In this document: positions 1 to 8,122 of the stretch, piece by piece
Layout: every line of letters starts with the position of its first letter
Position numbering within the stretch: position 1 is the first letter of the stretch
Origin: Bacilli bacterium
Lineage (GTDB): Bacteria > Bacillota_I > Bacilli_A > RF39 > UBA660
Length of the DNA: 61,616 nt
Direction: 5' to 3'
Assembly (NCBI GenBank): GCA_016283075.1
Contig: JAEEMF010000069.1
Coordinates: 1 to 61,616, forward strand
Translations under genes and position numbers: made by a program
Notes under the pieces: generated by a model
Database searches by the model: none
The model's input: the letters and a program-made list of their open reading frames with translations, nothing else
What the model was told of the DNA's origin: nothing

Positions 1-200
1 ACTGCGAACCTAGTTCTACTAGAAGAATAGAAAAAAGTGAATCATTTAATAAATGGTTTACCTTTTGGGAAAACCATAGAAAAACTCTTGATACATGTAA
101 ATATGCCGAATTTCTTCATAAATTAGTAAATAATGAAGATGTAAGTGAATATATGCCTGATACTAAATGGAATGATAATCCTAAATCGTTAATAAAATAA
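1..200 (+). CDS. 3' end of an unidentified ORF (partial, 5' end outside window)
   Basis: Frame beginning at nt 3 is open until TAA at 198-200. No motif I recognise. Confidence 0.4.
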   Translation, partial: CEPSSTRRIEKSESFNKWFTFWENHRKTLDTCKYAEFLHKLVNNEDVSEYMPDTKWNDNPKSLIK

Positions 201-209
201 ATATATTTA

Positions 210-218
210 TGTTATAAT
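210..218 (+). promoter_or_regulatory. extended -10 promoter element (TGTTATAAT)
   Basis: TG at 210-211, TATAAT at 213-218, followed by AGGAGG (225-230) and ATG 237. Confidence 0.45.
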
Positions 219-236
219 TAACTTAGGAGGATTAAT

Positions 237-812
237 ATGAAAGATCACTCAAAAAGTATAGAAGAAAGAAGTAAATATGTTCTTTCTTATAAAGTTAAAG
301 ATAACAAATTAATATGTAATATGGCTACTGGAGAATCACTTGTTTATGATTATTCAGTGGAAAACGAAAATAAAATTAAAAAAGTTATGGAAAAGCAAGC
401 AACTGATCATAAAGATGATAATTATGAAACTAATTCATATATAACATATATTATTGTTTTATTGATGATACTTGCACTATTTAATTTAAATCTTCCTGTT
501 ATAGGAGTATGCTCTTTTTTATTACTTGTTAAAGGAGCATCTAGATTATATGCTACATCACTTAAAAATGATATAGAAAAGTTAAATTTATTCTTAGAAT
601 CTGGGAATATAATTAATGATAATTTAGATAAACCTAATATTAAAGCAGGTATATCTAAAAAAACTAAAAAGATTATTAATAATGGTCCAATTGATATAAA
701 TACACTTGATAAAGTTAAATTAAGAGATTATAAGAAATTACTTCTAAATATAAAAAGAGAAGAACTATTTAATATAGAAGAAATAAATAGTCCAAAAGTA
801 TATTCAAGATAG
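237..812 (+). CDS. two-TM membrane protein, distant member of the tandem paralog family (unknown function)
   Basis: AGGAGG RBS. N-terminal soluble region, adjacent hydrophobic helices (YITYIIVLLMILALF / VIGVCSFLLLV), Lys/Glu-rich C-terminus. Confidence 0.7.
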   Translation: MKDHSKSIEERSKYVLSYKVKDNKLICNMATGESLVYDYSVENENKIKKVMEKQATDHKDDNYETNSYITYIIVLLMILALFNLNLPVIGVCSFLLLVKGASRLYATSLKNDIEKLNLFLESGNIINDNLDKPNIKAGISKKTKKIINNGPIDINTLDKVKLRDYKKLLLNIKREELFNIEEINSPKVYSR

Positions 813-833
813 AGTTAAAACTCTATCTTTTTT
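807..833 (+). terminator. rho-independent terminator
   Basis: AGATAGAG / CTCTATCT stem followed by a T-run; overlaps the stop codon. Confidence 0.7.
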
Positions 834-847
834 ATTTCTATATCAAT

Positions 848-875
848 TTGTACTTTTTCATAAATATGTTATAAT
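848..875 (+). promoter_or_regulatory. sigma-A type promoter (TTGTAC-16-TGtTATAAT)
   Basis: -35-like TTGTAC at 848-853, TG at 867-868, TATAAT at 870-875. Confidence 0.45.
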
Positions 876-927
876 AGGGAACAATTGTGGCAGGATTTGC
901 CCATTAAAAGTAATTGGGGGTTATTAT

Positions 928-1530
928 ATGAAAAAGGAATTAGTACCATCAATATTTAAACTTAATTATATAAATAATTATGAGGTAGTAACAAATGAAA
1001 ATAAAACAAAAGATATTGTTATCAACTACATAATGGGTAATAAGGATATATTACCTTATACTAATACCAATATTTATATAGTAGAAAAACAAGTAAAAAC
1101 ACAGTTAGAAACTTTAAAGAATATGTTTTTATTTGATATTACTCACTTTGGTATTAGTTCTATTTGTAGTATAGCACTAGCTTTAGTATGTTTTATTTTT
1201 ACTGTTGCTAGTTCTGGAATACTTGCTGGATTATCGTTAGCAGCACTTTTATCTGTAACTGGATTTAGTGTTAAACAGTTTAAAAAAATGAAAGATGAAT
1301 ATGACTTTATTAAAAAAGTAGATTACTTTGAAAAGAATAAAGATGTATTTAATGGAGAAACTACTATAGAAAAAACAGTAGAAAAAGAAGAACCTACTTA
1401 TAAATTAAGTTATATTGATATAGATAATATGAGTTATAAAGAGTTAAAAGAAGCAAAAAAGGGTTTAGAAAATTTAGGATATGTTCCAAAAGAAGAATCT
1501 TCTTTAGGTAAACAACATATTAGGTTATAG
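928..1530 (+). CDS. two-TM membrane protein, distant member of the tandem paralog family
   Basis: Same architecture: N-terminal domain, hydrophobic hairpin (ISSICSIALALVCFIF / ILAGLSLAALLSV), charged C-terminus. Confidence 0.7.
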   Translation: MKKELVPSIFKLNYINNYEVVTNENKTKDIVINYIMGNKDILPYTNTNIYIVEKQVKTQLETLKNMFLFDITHFGISSICSIALALVCFIFTVASSGILAGLSLAALLSVTGFSVKQFKKMKDEYDFIKKVDYFEKNKDVFNGETTIEKTVEKEEPTYKLSYIDIDNMSYKELKEAKKGLENLGYVPKEESSLGKQHIRL

Positions 1531-1538
1531 GTGACAAC

Positions 1539-2315
1539 ATGGAAGAAGAAAAGAAAATTTATTATAACCAAATAGTAGGTTACGATAAAATTAACAATGG
1601 AAAAAATATTAAAATAACATATCTAAATAAGGATAAAGAGTATTTTACTGATATAGTACCAGCTGAATCATTTGATTTTGACTTAGCTGAGAAATGGACA
1701 GAAGGTAATTTTAAATCTTTTTTTGATACGATACGTATGTATTCTTTATTAGGCTTTGGATCAGTTGCTTTTGCTTGGTTTGTAAATACAACTACCTCAG
1801 CATTATTTGAAAAAATTATATATTATACTATAGAAACTTTATTTGCTGCTTTCTTTGCATTAGCAATAAAAAGTATTCCTAGTAATGTTGTACAAATAAA
1901 AAATGCTTGGGGATTTATGTTTAAAAAAATTAAATCCGAAAGGATGCTTAAGAAATTTAGAAAGATACAAAAGTTAAATGAAAAGGTTAAATTAATAGAT
2001 GATGAATCAATGATATGTCCTGTTGATATTCCTGTATCTTGTGAAGAAATGTTTATGAATTATAGTTTAAAAGATCTTAAAGATATATATAAAAATTTAA
2101 AGAGATCATATAAGGATAATAAAGAAGAAATAGAATTTAAAGAAATATTTGTTAAACCTGAAGTAGAGGTTCTAGAACTTCCTGAAGAAAAAGAAGAAGA
2201 AAAAGAATCTGAAGAAAATAATCATATATTAGATGATATTTATAGTATTATGGATAAATATAATTATACTCCAGATGAAAAACAAAAAATAATTACTTAT
2301 TTAATGGATAAATAA
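1539..2315 (+). CDS. TM-hairpin paralog family protein (unknown function)
   Basis: Motifs NKEEIEF and EVLELPEEKEE; two hydrophobic helices; AGGTGA RBS. Confidence 0.75.
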   Translation: MEEEKKIYYNQIVGYDKINNGKNIKITYLNKDKEYFTDIVPAESFDFDLAEKWTEGNFKSFFDTIRMYSLLGFGSVAFAWFVNTTTSALFEKIIYYTIETLFAAFFALAIKSIPSNVVQIKNAWGFMFKKIKSERMLKKFRKIQKLNEKVKLIDDESMICPVDIPVSCEEMFMNYSLKDLKDIYKNLKRSYKDNKEEIEFKEIFVKPEVEVLELPEEKEEEKESEENNHILDDIYSIMDKYNYTPDEKQKIITYLMDK

Positions 2316-2335
2316 TAACAAAAGGGGGTTTTGTT

Positions 2336-3121
2336 ATGCCAAGAAATGATGATATGAATATTTATGAAAATGCAATTAGATATGAAGTAGTAGGTAACGG
2401 AAAAACAGTTAAAGTATTTTTTAGGAATTGTGATACAGTTAAATTTTCTGTTATTCCTAGTGAAGAAGTTAATTTTGAAAAACTAGATGAAACAGTAAAA
2501 AAGAATGCTGGCGATTTAAAAAAAGAATTGAAAACTATCTCAATGATAGTTGGAATTCCTATTGCAATTGTTATGATACCTATCATGATAGTTAATGGAT
2601 TAATATTACCTACTTTATTGTCAGGTTTATCTGTTGTTGCCTATGCAGTATCAATTGATTATTTAATTTATACTAAAAATTTAAGAAGCTTAAAATATGT
2701 AGAAAAATATAAAGATAAAATTAATAATATGTATGCAGATATAGAAGGGGTAATATCTGGATATAACAAAATGTGTGAATTAGATGGTAAAGCTATTAAA
2801 GGTGTTACTTTTCCACTATTAAGTGAAGATATCTTATATAGTATTAAACCAAAACGTGTTAAGAAAATATACAAAGAACTTAAGAAATTACATAAAGCTA
2901 ATAAAGAAGATATTGAATATAGAAATTTCTTAATAGAATCAAGAAAGACAGTTATTCCTGAAGAAATTGAAGTACTTAAACTTCCTGAAGAAGAACAAGT
3001 TGTTGATTCTAATGAATGGCTTATTGCAGTTCAAAAGATTAAAGAACAATATGGCTTTAATCCTGATTCAGAAGGATTAATAGAAAATAAATTTAAAAAT
3101 TATACTCTTAGAAATAATTAG
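2336..3121 (+). CDS. TM-hairpin paralog family protein
   Basis: Motifs INNMYADIE, FPLLSED, NKEDIEY, EVLKLPEEE; two TM helices. Confidence 0.75.
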   Translation: MPRNDDMNIYENAIRYEVVGNGKTVKVFFRNCDTVKFSVIPSEEVNFEKLDETVKKNAGDLKKELKTISMIVGIPIAIVMIPIMIVNGLILPTLLSGLSVVAYAVSIDYLIYTKNLRSLKYVEKYKDKINNMYADIEGVISGYNKMCELDGKAIKGVTFPLLSEDILYSIKPKRVKKIYKELKKLHKANKEDIEYRNFLIESRKTVIPEEIEVLKLPEEEQVVDSNEWLIAVQKIKEQYGFNPDSEGLIENKFKNYTLRNN

Positions 3122-3134
3122 GAGGATTTAAATA

Positions 3135-3875
3135 ATGAAAGAAATAGAATACGATTGTTTAGTAGATTACACCATTGATGAAGATAATAAAAAGGCTACA
3201 TTAATATATGTAGATATTGATAAACGTACTGGTAAATGTTTATGCTCGGATACTGTACCAGTAAATATTCTTGATAAAGAAAAAGCAGATGAATCTATTG
3301 TTAATTGTAAGAAAACATTAAAGGATTATGCTGCACTTCTTTTACTATGTCCAGCAGTAGGTGTAATACTATATTTTTCGTACTTCTATTTAGAAATGTG
3401 TTTAGGTGGATTATCCCATACTGCATCAACACTTGTAGGTGTAGTTGCAGCACTTGCTTCTATTTATCCTCTTCCTGATAGTCTTCAAAGATATAGAGCA
3501 ATATTTATTAGTAAGAAACTTAAATATGAAGAAAAACATAGAGAAGAAATTAATAAGATGTATGAAGATGTTAAACTTCTTGATTGTATAACACTTGGAA
3601 GTGAAACAATTTCCTTACCTCTTTCTAAAAAAGAGTTTCTATGTGATATAAAACCTAAAAGTTTAAGAAAATTAAGAAAAGACTTAAAAAGTATAATTAA
3701 AGAGAATAAAGAGGAAATTGAATATCGAAAAGATTTATTAAAACAAAAGGAACGTATAGAAAGTACAAAAACATTAGAAGTAGAAACTGATAGAGGAGAA
3801 GTTGATATAAATAACTACTATGAAACACCTACCATATCTAATGAAACAAAATGCCCTGTATTATATAAAAAATAG
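3135..3875 (+). CDS. TM-hairpin paralog family protein
   Basis: Motifs INKMYEDV, LPLSKKE, NKEEIEY; AGGAGG RBS. Confidence 0.75.
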   Translation: MKEIEYDCLVDYTIDEDNKKATLIYVDIDKRTGKCLCSDTVPVNILDKEKADESIVNCKKTLKDYAALLLLCPAVGVILYFSYFYLEMCLGGLSHTASTLVGVVAALASIYPLPDSLQRYRAIFISKKLKYEEKHREEINKMYEDVKLLDCITLGSETISLPLSKKEFLCDIKPKSLRKLRKDLKSIIKENKEEIEYRKDLLKQKERIESTKTLEVETDRGEVDINNYYETPTISNETKCPVLYKK

Positions 3876-3892
3876 AAGAGGATGTGACATCT

Positions 3893-4723
3893 ATGCCTTA
3901 CTACCAAGAATTAATTCCTATAATTAGATATGAAGAAGTAATTGGTTATGAACCAGTAAAGAATCCTGATTCTGTTAAACTAATATATTTTGATCCTAAA
4001 ATATATAAAGATAATAATGGATATAATTTTCATGTTGTTTGGAAAAGAGATGTTGATTTTCAAAAACTGGATGAATCTATAAAAGAAAACCGTAAGAAAA
4101 TTAATAAGGACAGCTTTATATACTTATTACCTTTATCTTTAATAATCATTACTTTCTTTTATATGATTATTGGAAAGGTTTTGAATTTATTAGATACATC
4201 TAATCTATATGATATAATTTTGTATCTATTCGCTATAGCAGATGGTATAACTAGTGCCGCATTAAGGGATGAAATTGTTGGTAAAAGAAAATCACTACTT
4301 ACAAAGCGTAAGCTTAAGTTTATGGATAAGCATCGTGATGAAATAAATAAGATGTATGAAGATGTGTCACTTCTAGGATATAGTACTGATATGTTTAATA
4401 CATATAATAATAGAACTTATCCTTTAAGTAAAGAACATTTCTTAAATGGAGAGAGACTTTTAAATTTATTTGTATTAAATAAAAGATTAAAAAAAATAAC
4501 CAAAAAGAATAAAGATGAAATAGAACATCAAAAAGAACTTCTTTCTAAATTTAAAAAGGTTGAAAAAACTAAAGAAGAAGTAGAAGTACTAGAACTTCCT
4601 AAAGAGAAAGAAGAAATAAAAGAAGAAAATATACTAGATGAAGTAAATGCTATTTTAGATCAGTATAATGTTAGTCCTAGTGATAATACTAATAATTCAA
4701 TAAAAAATTTAATAAAGAAATAA
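3893..4723 (+). CDS. TM-hairpin paralog family protein
   Basis: Motifs INKMYEDV, YPLSKEH, NKDEIEH, EVLELPKEKEE. The ORF track starts at GTG 3884, but that lies only 2 nt after the GAGG, so ATG 3893 is preferred. Start is uncertain. Confidence 0.7.
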   Translation: MPYYQELIPIIRYEEVIGYEPVKNPDSVKLIYFDPKIYKDNNGYNFHVVWKRDVDFQKLDESIKENRKKINKDSFIYLLPLSLIIITFFYMIIGKVLNLLDTSNLYDIILYLFAIADGITSAALRDEIVGKRKSLLTKRKLKFMDKHRDEINKMYEDVSLLGYSTDMFNTYNNRTYPLSKEHFLNGERLLNLFVLNKRLKKITKKNKDEIEHQKELLSKFKKVEKTKEEVEVLELPKEKEEIKEENILDEVNAILDQYNVSPSDNTNNSIKNLIKK

Positions 4724-4734
4724 ATGGTGATTTT

Positions 4735-5556
4735 ATGGCGAAAGAAGAATACTATAATTTTTATAATCTTATATATCCTATTGATTATGAAATAGTAAAA
4801 GAAGATGAAAATGATACTATATATAGAGCTTTTGGAATATCTTCTGATAGAAAGAATCCAATAGAATCAGCTATTTTTAGAAAGAATACTTTTCAAGATG
4901 AAAAATATAATAAAGATCAACTAGCAAATAAATTCAATATAATTGAAAGAAACCATAAGAAAGTGATACCATTATGTTTTCATGATATTACTAATGTTTT
5001 ATCATTTTTTATTGGTGGTATATCTTTTGCTTCAATATTTGTATTAATTATTTGGTAAGAAACAATTGGTTTTACAAATCCTCTTTTATTATTTATACCG
5101 TTTATTACTTTTGTAGCTTCTATGCTGAAATGGGATAATTATTTCGATGGAAGACTTGAAATGTCAGGAAAAGGTATTCCAGTTTTTAAACGACTATCAT
5201 TCTATAAGAAATATGCAAAAGAGCTAAATAAACAGTATGAAGAAATAAAGAAACTTGGATTTAATAATTCAATTGACTTTGGAATTAATTTTCCTATAAC
5301 TAAGACAGATATATATTTAGCAGATGATTTAAAAAAATATAAAAAAATAAGAAAAGAATTTAAAAAGATAATAAAAGAACATAAAGAAGAAATAGAATAT
5401 ATTAGATATCAAGATAGTATAAAGAAACCTGAAGTACTAGAACTACCTAATGAAAAAGAAGATATTCTAGGTATAATTAATGAAGTAGAAAATAGATTTA
5501 GTCTTGGAATAGATAATACAAGTACAAATCAAAGAAAAAAATTAATAAAGAAATAA
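4735..5556 (+). pseudogene. TM-hairpin paralog interrupted by one in-frame TAA (5056-5058) between TM1 and TM2
   Basis: ORFs 4735-5058 and 5122-5556 are in the same frame. There is no other stop between them, and the read-through sequence (ETIGFTNPLLLFIPFITFVAS) supplies the missing second TM helix. Confidence 0.7.
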
Positions 5557-5579
5557 AAGGGTGATATTATGGAAGAAAA
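5188..5579 (+). repeat. direct repeat copy 1 (C-terminal half of paralog, intergenic region and next start)
   Basis: Near-identical by eye to 5998-6390 (a handful of substitutions and a 1-nt indel). Confidence 0.85.
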
Positions 5580-6366
5580 AATGGTTGAAAAACATACTAT
5601 TAAAATTCCGATCGATTATGAACTTGTTGATAGTGATAGTTATAAACCTAAAATTAGATTATATGGTATAGATAATGATACTATTAAAAGTGAGTTATTA
5701 TTTAAGAGTGATTTTCGTTGGGATTATAGTTGTTGTGGAGACTTCGGTATGTTAGACTACGACATCAAAAGAAATACAAATGTATTAGAAGAAATAGTTT
5801 CATTTGAAAATACAAATAAAGTATTGTTATCAACAACTTTAATTGGATCAATGATTATTGGGTTAGGTATATTTCTAGGTATTTCTGATGTTACTCTAGT
5901 GGGCTTAATTTCAGCTGGAATTTCTTTAGGTATTTATGGTTTTAATTATGTTTTATATTCCATGGAACGTTTTTACTGTCATGGTACACCAATAATGAAA
6001 CGTTTATCATTCTATAAGAAATATGCAAAAGAGCTAAATAAACAGTATGAAGAAATAAATAAACTTGGATTTAATAATTCAATTGACTTTGGAATTAATT
6101 TTCCTATAACTAAGAAAGATATATATTTAGCAGATGATTTAAAAAAATATAAAAAAATAAGAAAAGAATTTAAAAAGATAATAAAAGAACATAAAGAAGA
6201 AATAGAGTATATTAGATATCAAGATAGTAATAAGAAACCTGAAGTATTAGAACTACCTAATGAAAAAGAAGATATTCTAGGTACTATTAATGAAGTAGAA
6301 AATAGATTTAGTCTTGGAATAGATAACACAAGTACAAATCAAAGAAAAGAATTAATAAAGAAATAA
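5569..6366 (+). CDS. TM-hairpin paralog family protein
   Basis: Motifs LNKQYEEI, FPITKKD, KEHKEEIEY, EVLELPNEKE. Confidence 0.8.
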   Translation: MEEKMVEKHTIKIPIDYELVDSDSYKPKIRLYGIDNDTIKSELLFKSDFRWDYSCCGDFGMLDYDIKRNTNVLEEIVSFENTNKVLLSTTLIGSMIIGLGIFLGISDVTLVGLISAGISLGIYGFNYVLYSMERFYCHGTPIMKRLSFYKKYAKELNKQYEEINKLGFNNSIDFGINFPITKKDIYLADDLKKYKKIRKEFKKIIKEHKEEIEYIRYQDSNKKPEVLELPNEKEDILGTINEVENRFSLGIDNTSTNQRKELIKK

Positions 6367-6390
6367 AAATGGTGATATTATGGAAGAAAA
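5998..6390 (+). repeat. direct repeat copy 2
   Basis: See 5188-5579; the offset is 810-811 bp. Confidence 0.85.
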
Positions 6391-7195
6391 TGAAAAAACA
6401 GTAGTAGATTTTACAATTGATTATCCTATTGACTATGAACTTGTTGAAGGTGAAGGATCTCAACCAAAAATAAGGGTTTTTGGCGTAACTGGCGATAATT
6501 TTAAAAGTGAGTTATTGTTTAAATATAATTTTGAAAATGAATATAATGACCGAGGAGATCTATATAATTTAAATAGTGATATTAAGAAAAATATGAAAAT
6601 TGTTAAAAAATCAGCCGTGAGGGAATTAATAACTTATATATTTTTTCCTCTAATAATCATTGGTTTTGCTACTTTTATTACTGGCTTAATTTCTAATGGT
6701 ATGGTACTAGCTGGTATTACTAGAATTGGTTATTTTTTAATGTGGTCTTCTATTTTGATTAATAATACAAGTAAGTTATTATGTAGAAATAAAGATATTC
6801 TTGGTTTTGGTCTTCCAATACTTCGAAGAAAAAAATTCTATGAGAAAAAAGCTAAAGAACTTAATAAACAGTATGAAGAAATTAATAAACTTGGTTTTAT
6901 TTGTACGATAAATACTGATGTAGACTTTCCTATTAGTAAGAAAGATATTTACTGTACTAAAAGACTTAAAAAGTTTAAAAAGGTAAGTAAAGACTTTAAA
7001 AAGATTATAAAAGAACATAAAGAAGAAATAGAATATATTAGATATCAAGATAGTATTAAAAAACCTGAAGTACTAGAACTTCCTAATGAAAAAGAAGATA
7101 TTCTAGGTACTATTAATGAAGTAGAAAATAGATTTACTCCTTCTTTTACTAGTGAAACTAGTAAAAAACATTTACTTGAAAAGACAATTAGATAA
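6380..7195 (+). CDS. TM-hairpin paralog family protein
   Basis: Motifs LNKQYEEI, FPISKKD, KEHKEEIEY, EVLELPNEKE. Confidence 0.8.
   Translation: MEENEKTVVDFTIDYPIDYELVEGEGSQPKIRVFGVTGDNFKSELLFKYNFENEYNDRGDLYNLNSDIKKNMKIVKKSAVRELITYIFFPLIIIGFATFITGLISNGMVLAGITRIGYFLMWSSILINNTSKLLCRNKDILGFGLPILRRKKFYEKKAKELNKQYEEINKLGFICTINTDVDFPISKKDIYCTKRLKKFKKVSKDFKKIIKEHKEEIEYIRYQDSIKKPEVLELPNEKEDILGTINEVENRFTPSFTSETSKKHLLEKTIR
6995..7136 (+). repeat. third, partial copy of the paralog C-terminal repeat
   Basis: 142 nt nearly identical to 5359-5500. Confidence 0.8.
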
Positions 7196-7206
7196 GTGGT
7201 GATAAT

Positions 7207-8100
7207 ATGATAAATTTTAATGATAAACATGATCTATCTTATGATGAAGTATATGATTTTATAGTTGACTATGAAAAGTTAGATGATAATACTTATAAGA
7301 TTTATTATAGAGACTTTGATTTTTATGATATGGTAAATTATACAATTGTAAAAAATGATGATAATAAGATTAATGAAGATAAAATGGATAGGATGAAAGA
7401 ACGTACTTTATCAAGATGTAGTTATGCTAAGGATAAAAAAAGAAAAGATATCCTTTTCTTTGGTACGTGGCTTTTTATTATAGCTGGTCTAGTTCTAAGT
7501 ACATTTATGCGTTTTCCTGTTTCAAGAAGTATTTTTTTAATTTTAAATAGTACTTATTTGATACGTAGTCATACTGTCCGTAGATCTAAAATAGATGATG
7601 AATATGAAGAATGTGATAGAACACTATTTAAGAAAATAAACTTTACTAATAATAATAGAGAAAATCTTAATAAGATGTATGAGTATATTAGAAGATTAGG
7701 TTTTATCTCAGAACTATTTGAAGGTATAAAGTTTCCTTTAAGTAAGGAAGATACTTTAATAAATATACCTGTAAGTAAACTTAAAAAAATAGAAAAAGAA
7801 GTTAAAAAGATTGTAAAAGAACATAAAGAAGAAATAGATCAGTTTACTATAGAAGATGAACTTGAAAGAGAAAAAGAAAAGTTAAGAAATATAAAACTTC
7901 AAGAAATGGAAGATGAAAAAATGCGTTCTGAAATAAAAGAACTATTAGAGCATCCGGATGAATGGGATACTTCTTCTATGAAAAAAGAGGTAACTAAAGG
8001 TGATATTTTAGATACTATTAAAGAAATTCATAATATGTATTTATATACTCCCGAAACTGAAAATATAGAAAATCCAAAGTCTTTTGGAGCAAAAAAATAA
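7207..8100 (+). CDS. TM-hairpin paralog family protein (longer coiled-coil-like C-terminus)
   Basis: Motifs LNKMYEYI, FPLSKED, KEHKEEID; two hydrophobic helices. Confidence 0.75.
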   Translation: MINFNDKHDLSYDEVYDFIVDYEKLDDNTYKIYYRDFDFYDMVNYTIVKNDDNKINEDKMDRMKERTLSRCSYAKDKKRKDILFFGTWLFIIAGLVLSTFMRFPVSRSIFLILNSTYLIRSHTVRRSKIDDEYEECDRTLFKKINFTNNNRENLNKMYEYIRRLGFISELFEGIKFPLSKEDTLINIPVSKLKKIEKEVKKIVKEHKEEIDQFTIEDELEREKEKLRNIKLQEMEDEKMRSEIKELLEHPDEWDTSSMKKEVTKGDILDTIKEIHNMYLYTPETENIENPKSFGAKK

Positions 8101-8122
8101 CGAACTAAATAGTTCGTTTTTT
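8101..8122 (+). terminator. rho-independent terminator ending the paralog array
   Basis: CGAACT / AGTTCG stem followed by TTTTTT. Confidence 0.7.

Follow-up and report, generated by a model that had tools for sequence, protein, structure and literature searches.

We identified an array of ten consecutive plus-strand genes (g1–g10) in a 61,616-nucleotide stretch of contig JAEEMF010000069.1, which comes from an uncultured Bacilli bacterium of the UBA660 lineage (assembly GCA_016283075.1) and is called the window in its full length. The array is a tandem set of recombining paralogues with a predicted membrane hairpin, and neither its sequence nor its predicted fold assigns the family to any described group. 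We assign a probability of roughly 0.35 to our first-ranked reading, an orphan repertoire for immunity or exclusion. This reading is ranked first mainly because the dynamics of the array match those of esaG, tipC and lpl arrays, in which non-identical tandem paralogues share conserved recombination-supporting blocks, are gained and lost, and form hybrid genes between close strains (PMC9484751).

A first, sequence-only reading of this DNA had treated all ten genes as paralogues with a common set of motifs. This description fits g3–g10. A hidden Markov model (HMM) built from clear members recovers these eight genes with E values of 1e-54 to 1e-97 (5e-5 for the N-terminal fragment of g7), and only they contain the INKMYE, FPLSK, KEHKEEIEY and EVLELP motifs. 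It does not extend to g1 and g2, which lack the motifs and do not match the family HMM at E<10. Profile comparisons with hhalign, using 40 column shuffles as the control, nonetheless connect these two genes to the others. The N-domain of g2 aligns with the family N-domain at a probability of 30–65% (score 31.0 against 13.7 ± 2.2 after shuffling, reached by 0/40). Full-length g1 aligns with g2 at a probability of 62% (score 35.2 against 13.2 ± 2.6, 0/40), a score that is somewhat flattered since column shuffling disrupts hydrophobic runs and the alignment spans the hairpin. The direct comparison of g1 with the family is marginal (score 18.5, reached by 1/40 shuffles). AlphaFold2 (AF2) models of g1 and g9 share an order of elements, consisting of three strands, a helix, two long helices joined by a tight turn, and C-terminal helices; the g1 model has low confidence (predicted local distance difference test score, pLDDT, 67.5; predicted template modelling score, pTM, 0.38). 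On these profile comparisons, membership comes to eight certain genes (g3–g10), one probable gene (g2) and one gene that is linked indirectly through g2 (g1).

All ten proteins have a common predicted layout: a cytoplasmic beta-beta-beta-alpha N-domain (60–90 aa), an N-in/C-in transmembrane (TM) hairpin and a cationic amphipathic helix. By Kyte-Doolittle hydropathy, six of the ten genes encode two TM segments and four show a single clear one; the first segment is strong and the second weaker. AF2 models contain two long helices with a 3-residue turn between them. Lysine and arginine are clustered on both flanks of the hairpin and are almost absent from the 3–12 residue loops, and the topology is therefore predicted to be N-in/C-in; the TM segments behind this topology were called by hydropathy and not by a dedicated TM predictor. 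The hairpin with both termini in the cytoplasm had been proposed by the sequence-only reading, as had the lack of a signal peptide, and we found neither a signal peptide nor a lipobox in the array proteins. In the g9 model (pLDDT 74, pTM 0.61), the strands occupy residues 15–47, the two long helices residues 62–104 and 108–134, and the C-terminal helices residues 144–227, followed by a disordered tail. The AF2 models were built on shallow alignments.

The cationic amphipathic helix lies 40–60 residues past the hairpin in all members (hydrophobic moment 0.46–0.70, net charge +2 to +6). In g3–g10 this helix carries lysines at positions i, i+3, i+7 and i+10 (K204, K207, K211, K214). The same eight proteins additionally contain an acidic tail, predicted to be disordered, with the EVLELP motif and a short IL..I...Y helix.

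Among g3–g10, the TM region is the least conserved (mean pairwise identity 16%), followed by the N-domain (22%), the tail (36%) and the C-terminal core (38%). The earlier suggestion that N-domains are diverged while some C-terminal halves are nearly identical is borne out by g7 and g8, which are 28% identical in the N-domain and 21% in the hairpin but 93–95% identical in the C-terminal half. At the DNA level, positions 5188–5568 (g7) and 5997–6379 (g8) are 96.3% identical over 382 nt, a tract that includes the intergenic spacer and has a sharp 5′ boundary. We compared this tract with L001, a syntenic 82-kb contig from a close strain. The C-terminal parts of g7 and g8 are 96.7% identical, while that of g8 is 89.7% identical to its L001 orthologue, and at 34 sites g7 and g8 agree with each other and differ from L001. 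These observations indicate that gene conversion between g7 and g8 postdates the split of the strains. The gene at 4735 (g7) had been reported as broken, and it contains a single lesion, an in-frame TAA at 5056–5058 (codon 108); the other 273 of its 274 codons are open.

A comparison of copy number between strains, which the sequence-only reading had put forward as a check, gave ten genes in the window, nine in L001 and at most eight in L061, a contig from another sample. The array thus differs in copy number by strain. Both L001 and L061 lack g7. L061 contains a g5::g6 hybrid that keeps the reading frame and has g8 immediately behind it; nt 1–542 of L061 correspond to window positions 3212–3753 at 96.5% identity. 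The hybrid junction falls within ...EEIEYRKDLLKQKE joined to LLSKFKKVEK..., where the parents overlap by only ~10 nt. This overlap is too short for a k-mer assembly chimera. Gene number shifts between strains via recombination among paralogues. A further candidate, P0007 as a g8::g9 chimera, was dropped, because past nt 1238 the contig end diverges and hits a stop, maybe as an assembly end effect. At L061:1238–1346, the g8-type gene reaches ...NKLGF and then reads ICTVNEDIPFC and a stop, which matches neither the window nor L001; this divergence could be a further rearrangement or an assembly end effect.

The array proteins are 81–94% identical in amino acid sequence to their L001 orthologues, compared with 98–99% for the neighbouring murL, murD2 and AMP-ligase products. 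Ratios of nonsynonymous to synonymous substitution (dN/dS) between the window and L001 are 0.18–0.46 in the array and 0.06–0.09 in the neighbours. When sites are pooled by region, the TM region evolves fastest (dN/dS 0.56), the N-domain is intermediate (0.27) and the C-domain is slowest (0.21). The family is fast-evolving yet under purifying selection throughout.

All ten open reading frames (ORFs) were recovered by ORF calling at the starts given in the sequence-only reading. The intergenic gaps from g1 to g10 are 115, 8, 20, 13, 17, 11, 12, 13 and 11 nt, with 80 nt between g10 and murL; the gaps described earlier as small measure 8–20 nt from g2 onward. A Shine-Dalgarno (SD)-like motif is present at 10/10 genes. 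For g6, an ATG at 3893 is the likely start over a GTG at 3884, because its SD spacing fits and the orthologues start with MPYYQ. Terminator-like hairpins occur in the array only behind g1 and g10. Given these hairpins, the SD motifs and the 8–20 nt spacers, g2–g10 probably form one operon with g2 as its first gene, and g1 is probably monocistronic. GC content at third codon positions is 0.12 in the array and 0.11 in housekeeping genes, and the array is native to the chromosome.

The sequence-only reading had not recognised the family, and our searches of curated profiles, solved structures and predicted viral structures gave no match to it either. Scans of the ten proteins against Pfam, NCBIfam, PHROGs and PADLOC, and a rescan of 15 family members at E <= 10, returned nothing significant at hmmscan-level sensitivity. 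A profile search against PDB sequences gave no match. Foldseek was run on PDB and BFVD with the g9 model and on PDB with the g1 model; the best E values were 0.2–0.8, and the matches were only generic helical hairpins and chemokine-like beta-beta-beta-alpha units.

The family is also confined in its distribution. We found 8 family proteins among 5.8 billion in a word-indexed search and 8 among 1.84 billion cluster representatives in an exhaustive HMMER search. The family proteins found come from the present contig and from a few further metagenome contigs, all of one lineage. The family profile found no relative in 185,579 GTDB species genomes, JGI metagenomes or IMG/VR, the g1 profile found none in JGI metagenomes, and tblastn found none in phage and plasmid records. 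An HMM search of the ORFs of 54 murL-anchored related loci likewise recovered no member, and no look-alike array lies upstream of murL in these loci. The neighbouring MurL groups the host with metagenome-assembled genomes (MAGs) of uncultured low-GC gut 'Bacilli', which were sampled from ruminants, chickens, rabbits and Hadza humans. MurL of the closest species representative is 61% identical, and two complete-looking relatives have genomes of 1.2 and 1.5 Mb. A lineage-specific unannotated family in an uncultured MAG is not rare; what is notable here is a recombining operon of nine to ten genes in a small genome.

We identified two g1-type relatives with ~32–33% identity (P0022 and P0023; L058:228–893 and L059:959–1498). 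Both are single genes from another organism with ~24% GC, adjoin convergent vanY and spoVS genes, and keep the N-terminus MKDHS...KY[IV]LSYKV. As g1 alone has single-copy relatives elsewhere, this suggests that a single-copy g1-type gene is the ancestral state of the family. A separate 871-bp ENA contig (P0008) carries a g3-type C-terminal part that continues through EVLELPEEKEE and runs into a GGDEF fragment (Pfam accession PF00990); the join may be genuine, through rearrangement, or may come from misassembly of a short contig.

On the immunity or exclusion reading, each paralogue would recognise its own variant of an incoming agent through the variable N-domain and hairpin and would neutralise it. 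Such an agent would insert into or cross the membrane, as do bacteriocins, phage entry proteins and toxins delivered by contact or secretion, and recognition would take place at or within the inner membrane face. The shared cationic helix would keep the C-terminal module on the anionic inner leaflet, and the shared tail may bind a common partner or mediate oligomerisation. Co-expression of many variants would then give broad protection. Besides the array dynamics, we count in favour of this reading the conserved C-terminal module beside a fast-diverging N-domain and hairpin, the operon signals, evolution that is quick yet constrained, the cationic helix common to all members, and the native third-position GC content.

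Immunity arrays associated with type VII secretion systems (T7SS) and polymorphic toxins (esaG/DUF600, tipC, tsaI/DUF443), together with Staphylococcus aureus lpl, resemble the present array in several ways. They consist of tandem non-identical paralogues, recombine between paralogues, vary in copy number, and place variable regions beside a conserved framework. TsaI is moreover a membrane protein, as the present proteins are predicted to be. The differences are also clear. The EsaG-DUF600, TsaI-DUF443 and TipC families have no sequence or fold relation to the present family (Pfam, NCBIfam, Foldseek). The soluble EsaG, the lipoprotein TipC and TsaI, with its five TM helices, also differ in build from the present family, which has a predicted two-helix hairpin with both soluble domains in the cytoplasm. 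The esaG, tipC and tsaI families are widespread, whereas the present family is limited to one lineage.

T7SS immunity arrays also differ from the present array in having toxin or T7SS genes at the locus. The sequence-only reading had compared the array with immunity genes beside a polymorphic toxin; the likeness holds for copy number, hybrid formation, gene conversion and the pseudogene, and fails for the toxin. It had suggested looking for an LXG or T7SS toxin ahead of the array, and none appeared when the locus was extended upstream through L001 and a further syntenic contig, L060.

Several observations weigh against an immunity or exclusion role. First, no genes for a toxin (LXG or other), a secretion system (T7SS included), a bacteriocin, a phage or a mobile element occur in 4.6 kb upstream (L001, L060) or in the 28 kb checked downstream. 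Second, known immunity and defence families are usually patchy across many taxa through horizontal transfer, and confinement to one lineage is usually too narrow for a typical conflict family. Third, no region has a dN/dS > 1, and there is thus no direct sign of diversifying selection. Fourth, the predicted cytoplasmic location of both soluble domains would be unusual for immunity to envelope-acting toxins. Finally, the evolutionary signatures fit equally well a dispensable tandem family under relaxed constraint.

We further suggest, tentatively and with more doubt than for the immunity or exclusion role itself, that these proteins may be a new class of membrane-anchored conflict proteins. In this class the hairpin and beta-beta-beta-alpha domain would give in-bilayer specificity, and the cationic helix and acidic tail would give a common output, in a co-expressed, recombining repertoire without a linked toxin or secretion system. 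The class could have arisen de novo in the lineage from the single-copy g1-type ancestor.

The alternative that survives best, although we consider it somewhat unlikely, is that the array encodes a lineage-specific membrane scaffold with a non-conflict role. The paralogues would hetero-oligomerise via their C-terminal helices and tail and would tether cytoplasmic clients bound by the N-domains. The array occupies a syntenic core-chromosome position (tRNA/ABC-F to murL-murD2) in three independent samples, has native codon usage, and shows purifying selection on all members, all of which would suit a scaffold. Its tight single operon suggests co-expression, and the tail motif lies in a disordered region, as is typical of a partner-binding linear motif. 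The g1-type relatives by vanY and spoVS are single, housekeeping-like genes, and the lineage, with relatives whose genomes reach only ~1.2–1.5 Mb, has kept ~7 kb of DNA for the array. A fixed-stoichiometry machine would nevertheless be a poor fit to a gene number that varies between close strains, to a pseudogene and to a tolerated in-frame hybrid. The proteins also diverge 5–10 times more than the products of neighbouring housekeeping genes, and the array is missing at the murL locus in 54/54 related genomes sampled.

An abortive-infection repertoire akin to SLATT, in which the N-domain senses a phage cue and the hairpins oligomerise into a depolarising pore, appears distinctly improbable. 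SLATT effectors associated with SMODS, SLOG or reverse transcriptase (RT), such as DRT10 SLATT-5, contain two TM helices followed by cytoplasmic helices, and SLATT domains are often fused to variable N-terminal modules. The layout of the present proteins (sensor, two TM helices, cytoplasmic helices) is similar to that of these 2-TM effectors and the N-domains recall the variable modules, although the resemblance is generic rather than diagnostic. The sole recurrent profile match of the family was to PADLOC RTasSLATT (4/15 members, best E = 0.019, sub-threshold), which in g4 spans residues 66–210, the hairpin and the helices that follow. Quick evolution and variable copy number would also suit such a repertoire. 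The RTasSLATT match is, however, far from significant; the Pfam SLATT models (SLATT_1–5 and fungal SLATT) had no match at E <= 10 in the 15 members, and no other PADLOC system matched. SLATT effectors come with an RT, SMODS, SLOG or TIR partner, whereas we found no SMODS, SLOG, TIR, RT or GTPase partner in the window to ~38.5 kb (the Pfam-annotated part) or in 4.6 kb upstream (L001), and genes for a nucleotide-generating or RT partner do not accompany the array. A cell that constitutively co-transcribed nine pore-formers would put itself at risk, and the family does not show a phage, plasmid or defence-island distribution. SLATT genes are not known to occur as nine-gene paralogue operons.

Class II holins also have two TM helices, an N-in/C-in topology and a strongly charged C-terminal tail. 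They are under ~150 aa, whereas the present proteins, at 191–297 aa, are two to three times their length and include a folded N-domain. Unlike class II holins, the present family occurs in nine tandem copies, has no PHROG match and lacks an endolysin or phage context.

The sequence-only reading had also raised a contingency multigene family, that is, antigenic variation of surface proteins as in Mollicutes-like reduced genomes. The tandem multigene arrangement, the small low-GC genome and the recombination among paralogues would be in keeping with this idea, which our results largely refute and which we regard as very improbable. Phase-variable surface families have a large exposed domain and a switching mechanism, and the present array has neither. 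The predicted N-in/C-in topology leaves only a 3–12 residue external loop, and a signal peptide and a lipobox are both missing. The 8.1 kb contain no slippage-prone repeats or invertible elements (one A8 tract is present), and the copies lie in one operon, not behind individually switchable promoters.

Since the source is a metagenome assembly and AT-rich DNA tends to give spurious ORFs, the array might be suspected to be misassembled or to consist of open frames that do not code for protein, but this is refuted by the independent assembly of the array in at least three other samples (89–99.7% identity), a dN/dS well under 1, an SD motif at every gene, and N and TM parts that are 16–46% identical between paralogues and so are not collapsed or duplicated repeats.

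If the immunity or exclusion reading is correct, the array would represent a new class of proteins that act in conflict between bacteria or with phages, with specificity largely in a TM hairpin, in a group of reduced-genome uncultured gut Bacilli whose biology is almost unexplored. Independent of function, it offers a clean natural case of a young orphan family undergoing birth and death, with gene conversion and the formation of hybrid genes. The array takes up ~7 kb, roughly 0.5% of a ~1.2–1.5 Mb genome. As the host is uncultured and the family tiny, progress hinges on heterologous assays.

Table 1. Coordinates of the array genes and associated features in the window.
Feature	Positions	Strand	Description
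3′ end of upstream gene	1..200	+	C-terminus of a 132-aa protein (L001 4242–4640), by translation match
Promoter-like site before g1	189..218	+	TTAATA, 18-nt spacer, TG-extended TATAAT; consensus match only
g1	237..812	+	191 aa; distant member, probably of ancestral type (ORF, AF2 layout, hhalign to g2)
Intrinsic-terminator-like hairpin and T-run after g1	806..829	+	10-bp stem, then TTTTATTTCT
g2	928..1530	+	200 aa; divergent member; TM hairpin at residues 76–94 and 98–116
g3	1539..2315	+	258 aa; core member, HMM E = 1.2e-84; L001 orthologue 86% identical
g4	2336..3121	+	261 aa; core member, HMM E = 7.8e-78; TM segments 68–86 and 93–111
g5	3135..3875	+	246 aa; core member, HMM E = 2.9e-78; 5′ parent of the g5::g6 hybrid (L061)
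g6	3893..4723	+	276 aa from ATG 3893; core member, HMM E = 3.9e-93
g7	4735..5556	+	Pseudogene or nonsense allele; own N-domain and TM region, g8-derived C-half
Gene-conversion tract, g7 copy	5188..5568	+	Pairs with 5997–6379 in g8
g8	5569..6366	+	265 aa; core member, HMM E = 1.3e-93
g9	6380..7195	+	271 aa; core member, HMM E = 9.5e-97; AF2-modelled
g10	7207..8100	+	297 aa; core member, HMM E = 3.7e-80; longer E/K-rich insert ahead of the tail motif (alignment)
Bidirectional terminator-like hairpin at array end	8099..8118	+	8-bp stem, T-runs on both strands

In the syntenic contigs L001 and L060, the upstream order is a 635-aa protein, an ABC-F ATPase, tRNA-Gln, tRNA-Thr, a 52-aa protein, the 132-aa protein and g1. 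The 132-aa protein has no match in Pfam, NCBIfam or PHROGs; judged by its sequence, it is neither a toxin nor a family member. The 635-aa protein (L001:117–2024) is predicted to be cytoplasmic and has no family match; it contains an HExxH-like motif (IIHELNHVYE) and could be an uncharacterised metallopeptidase. The tRNA-Gln(CTG) and tRNA-Thr(CGT) genes (L001:3728–3880) lie ~800 bp upstream of g1, a position typical for island insertion. A genomic island at tRNA-Thr was considered and not adopted: we found neither an integrase nor a shift in composition, and the far end lacks a direct repeat derived from the tRNA.

Downstream, the array is followed by murL, murD2, AMP-ligase, EngB, EngA, AddB, AddA, SerRS, MnmA, PcrA and similar genes, and the 28 kb checked are housekeeping in content. 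The murL-murD2 pair (window:8181–10843) represents an alternative peptidoglycan route in which L-glutamate is added and then epimerised. The MurL match (E = 4e-75) falls short of the equivalog cut-off for Xanthomonadales. The pair occurs widely among related gut Bacilli MAGs and is also found in Saccharibacteria MAGs.

We also noted several unusual genes and regions further into the window. A 365-aa Mbeg1-like protein (Pfam accession PF11187, E = 4e-60) is encoded between a methionine gamma-lyase gene and addB (window:18788–19885). A 320-aa protein (window:27473–28435) matches the ALK/LTK glycine-rich domain (Pfam accession PF12810, E = 3.8e-27), which is unusual in a bacterium. Next to it on the minus strand, window:28467–31484 encodes a 1005-aa superfamily 1 (SF1) helicase (AAA_11/AAA_12), one of only two large minus-strand genes. 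GC skew collapses locally and AT skew reverses at 28–32 kb, coinciding with this helicase gene. Finally, GC content rises to 0.33–0.39 at window:38000–42000 against a background of 0.24–0.29. A search of this region for rRNA and tRNA genes found none, and the rise presumably reflects highly expressed or conserved protein genes.

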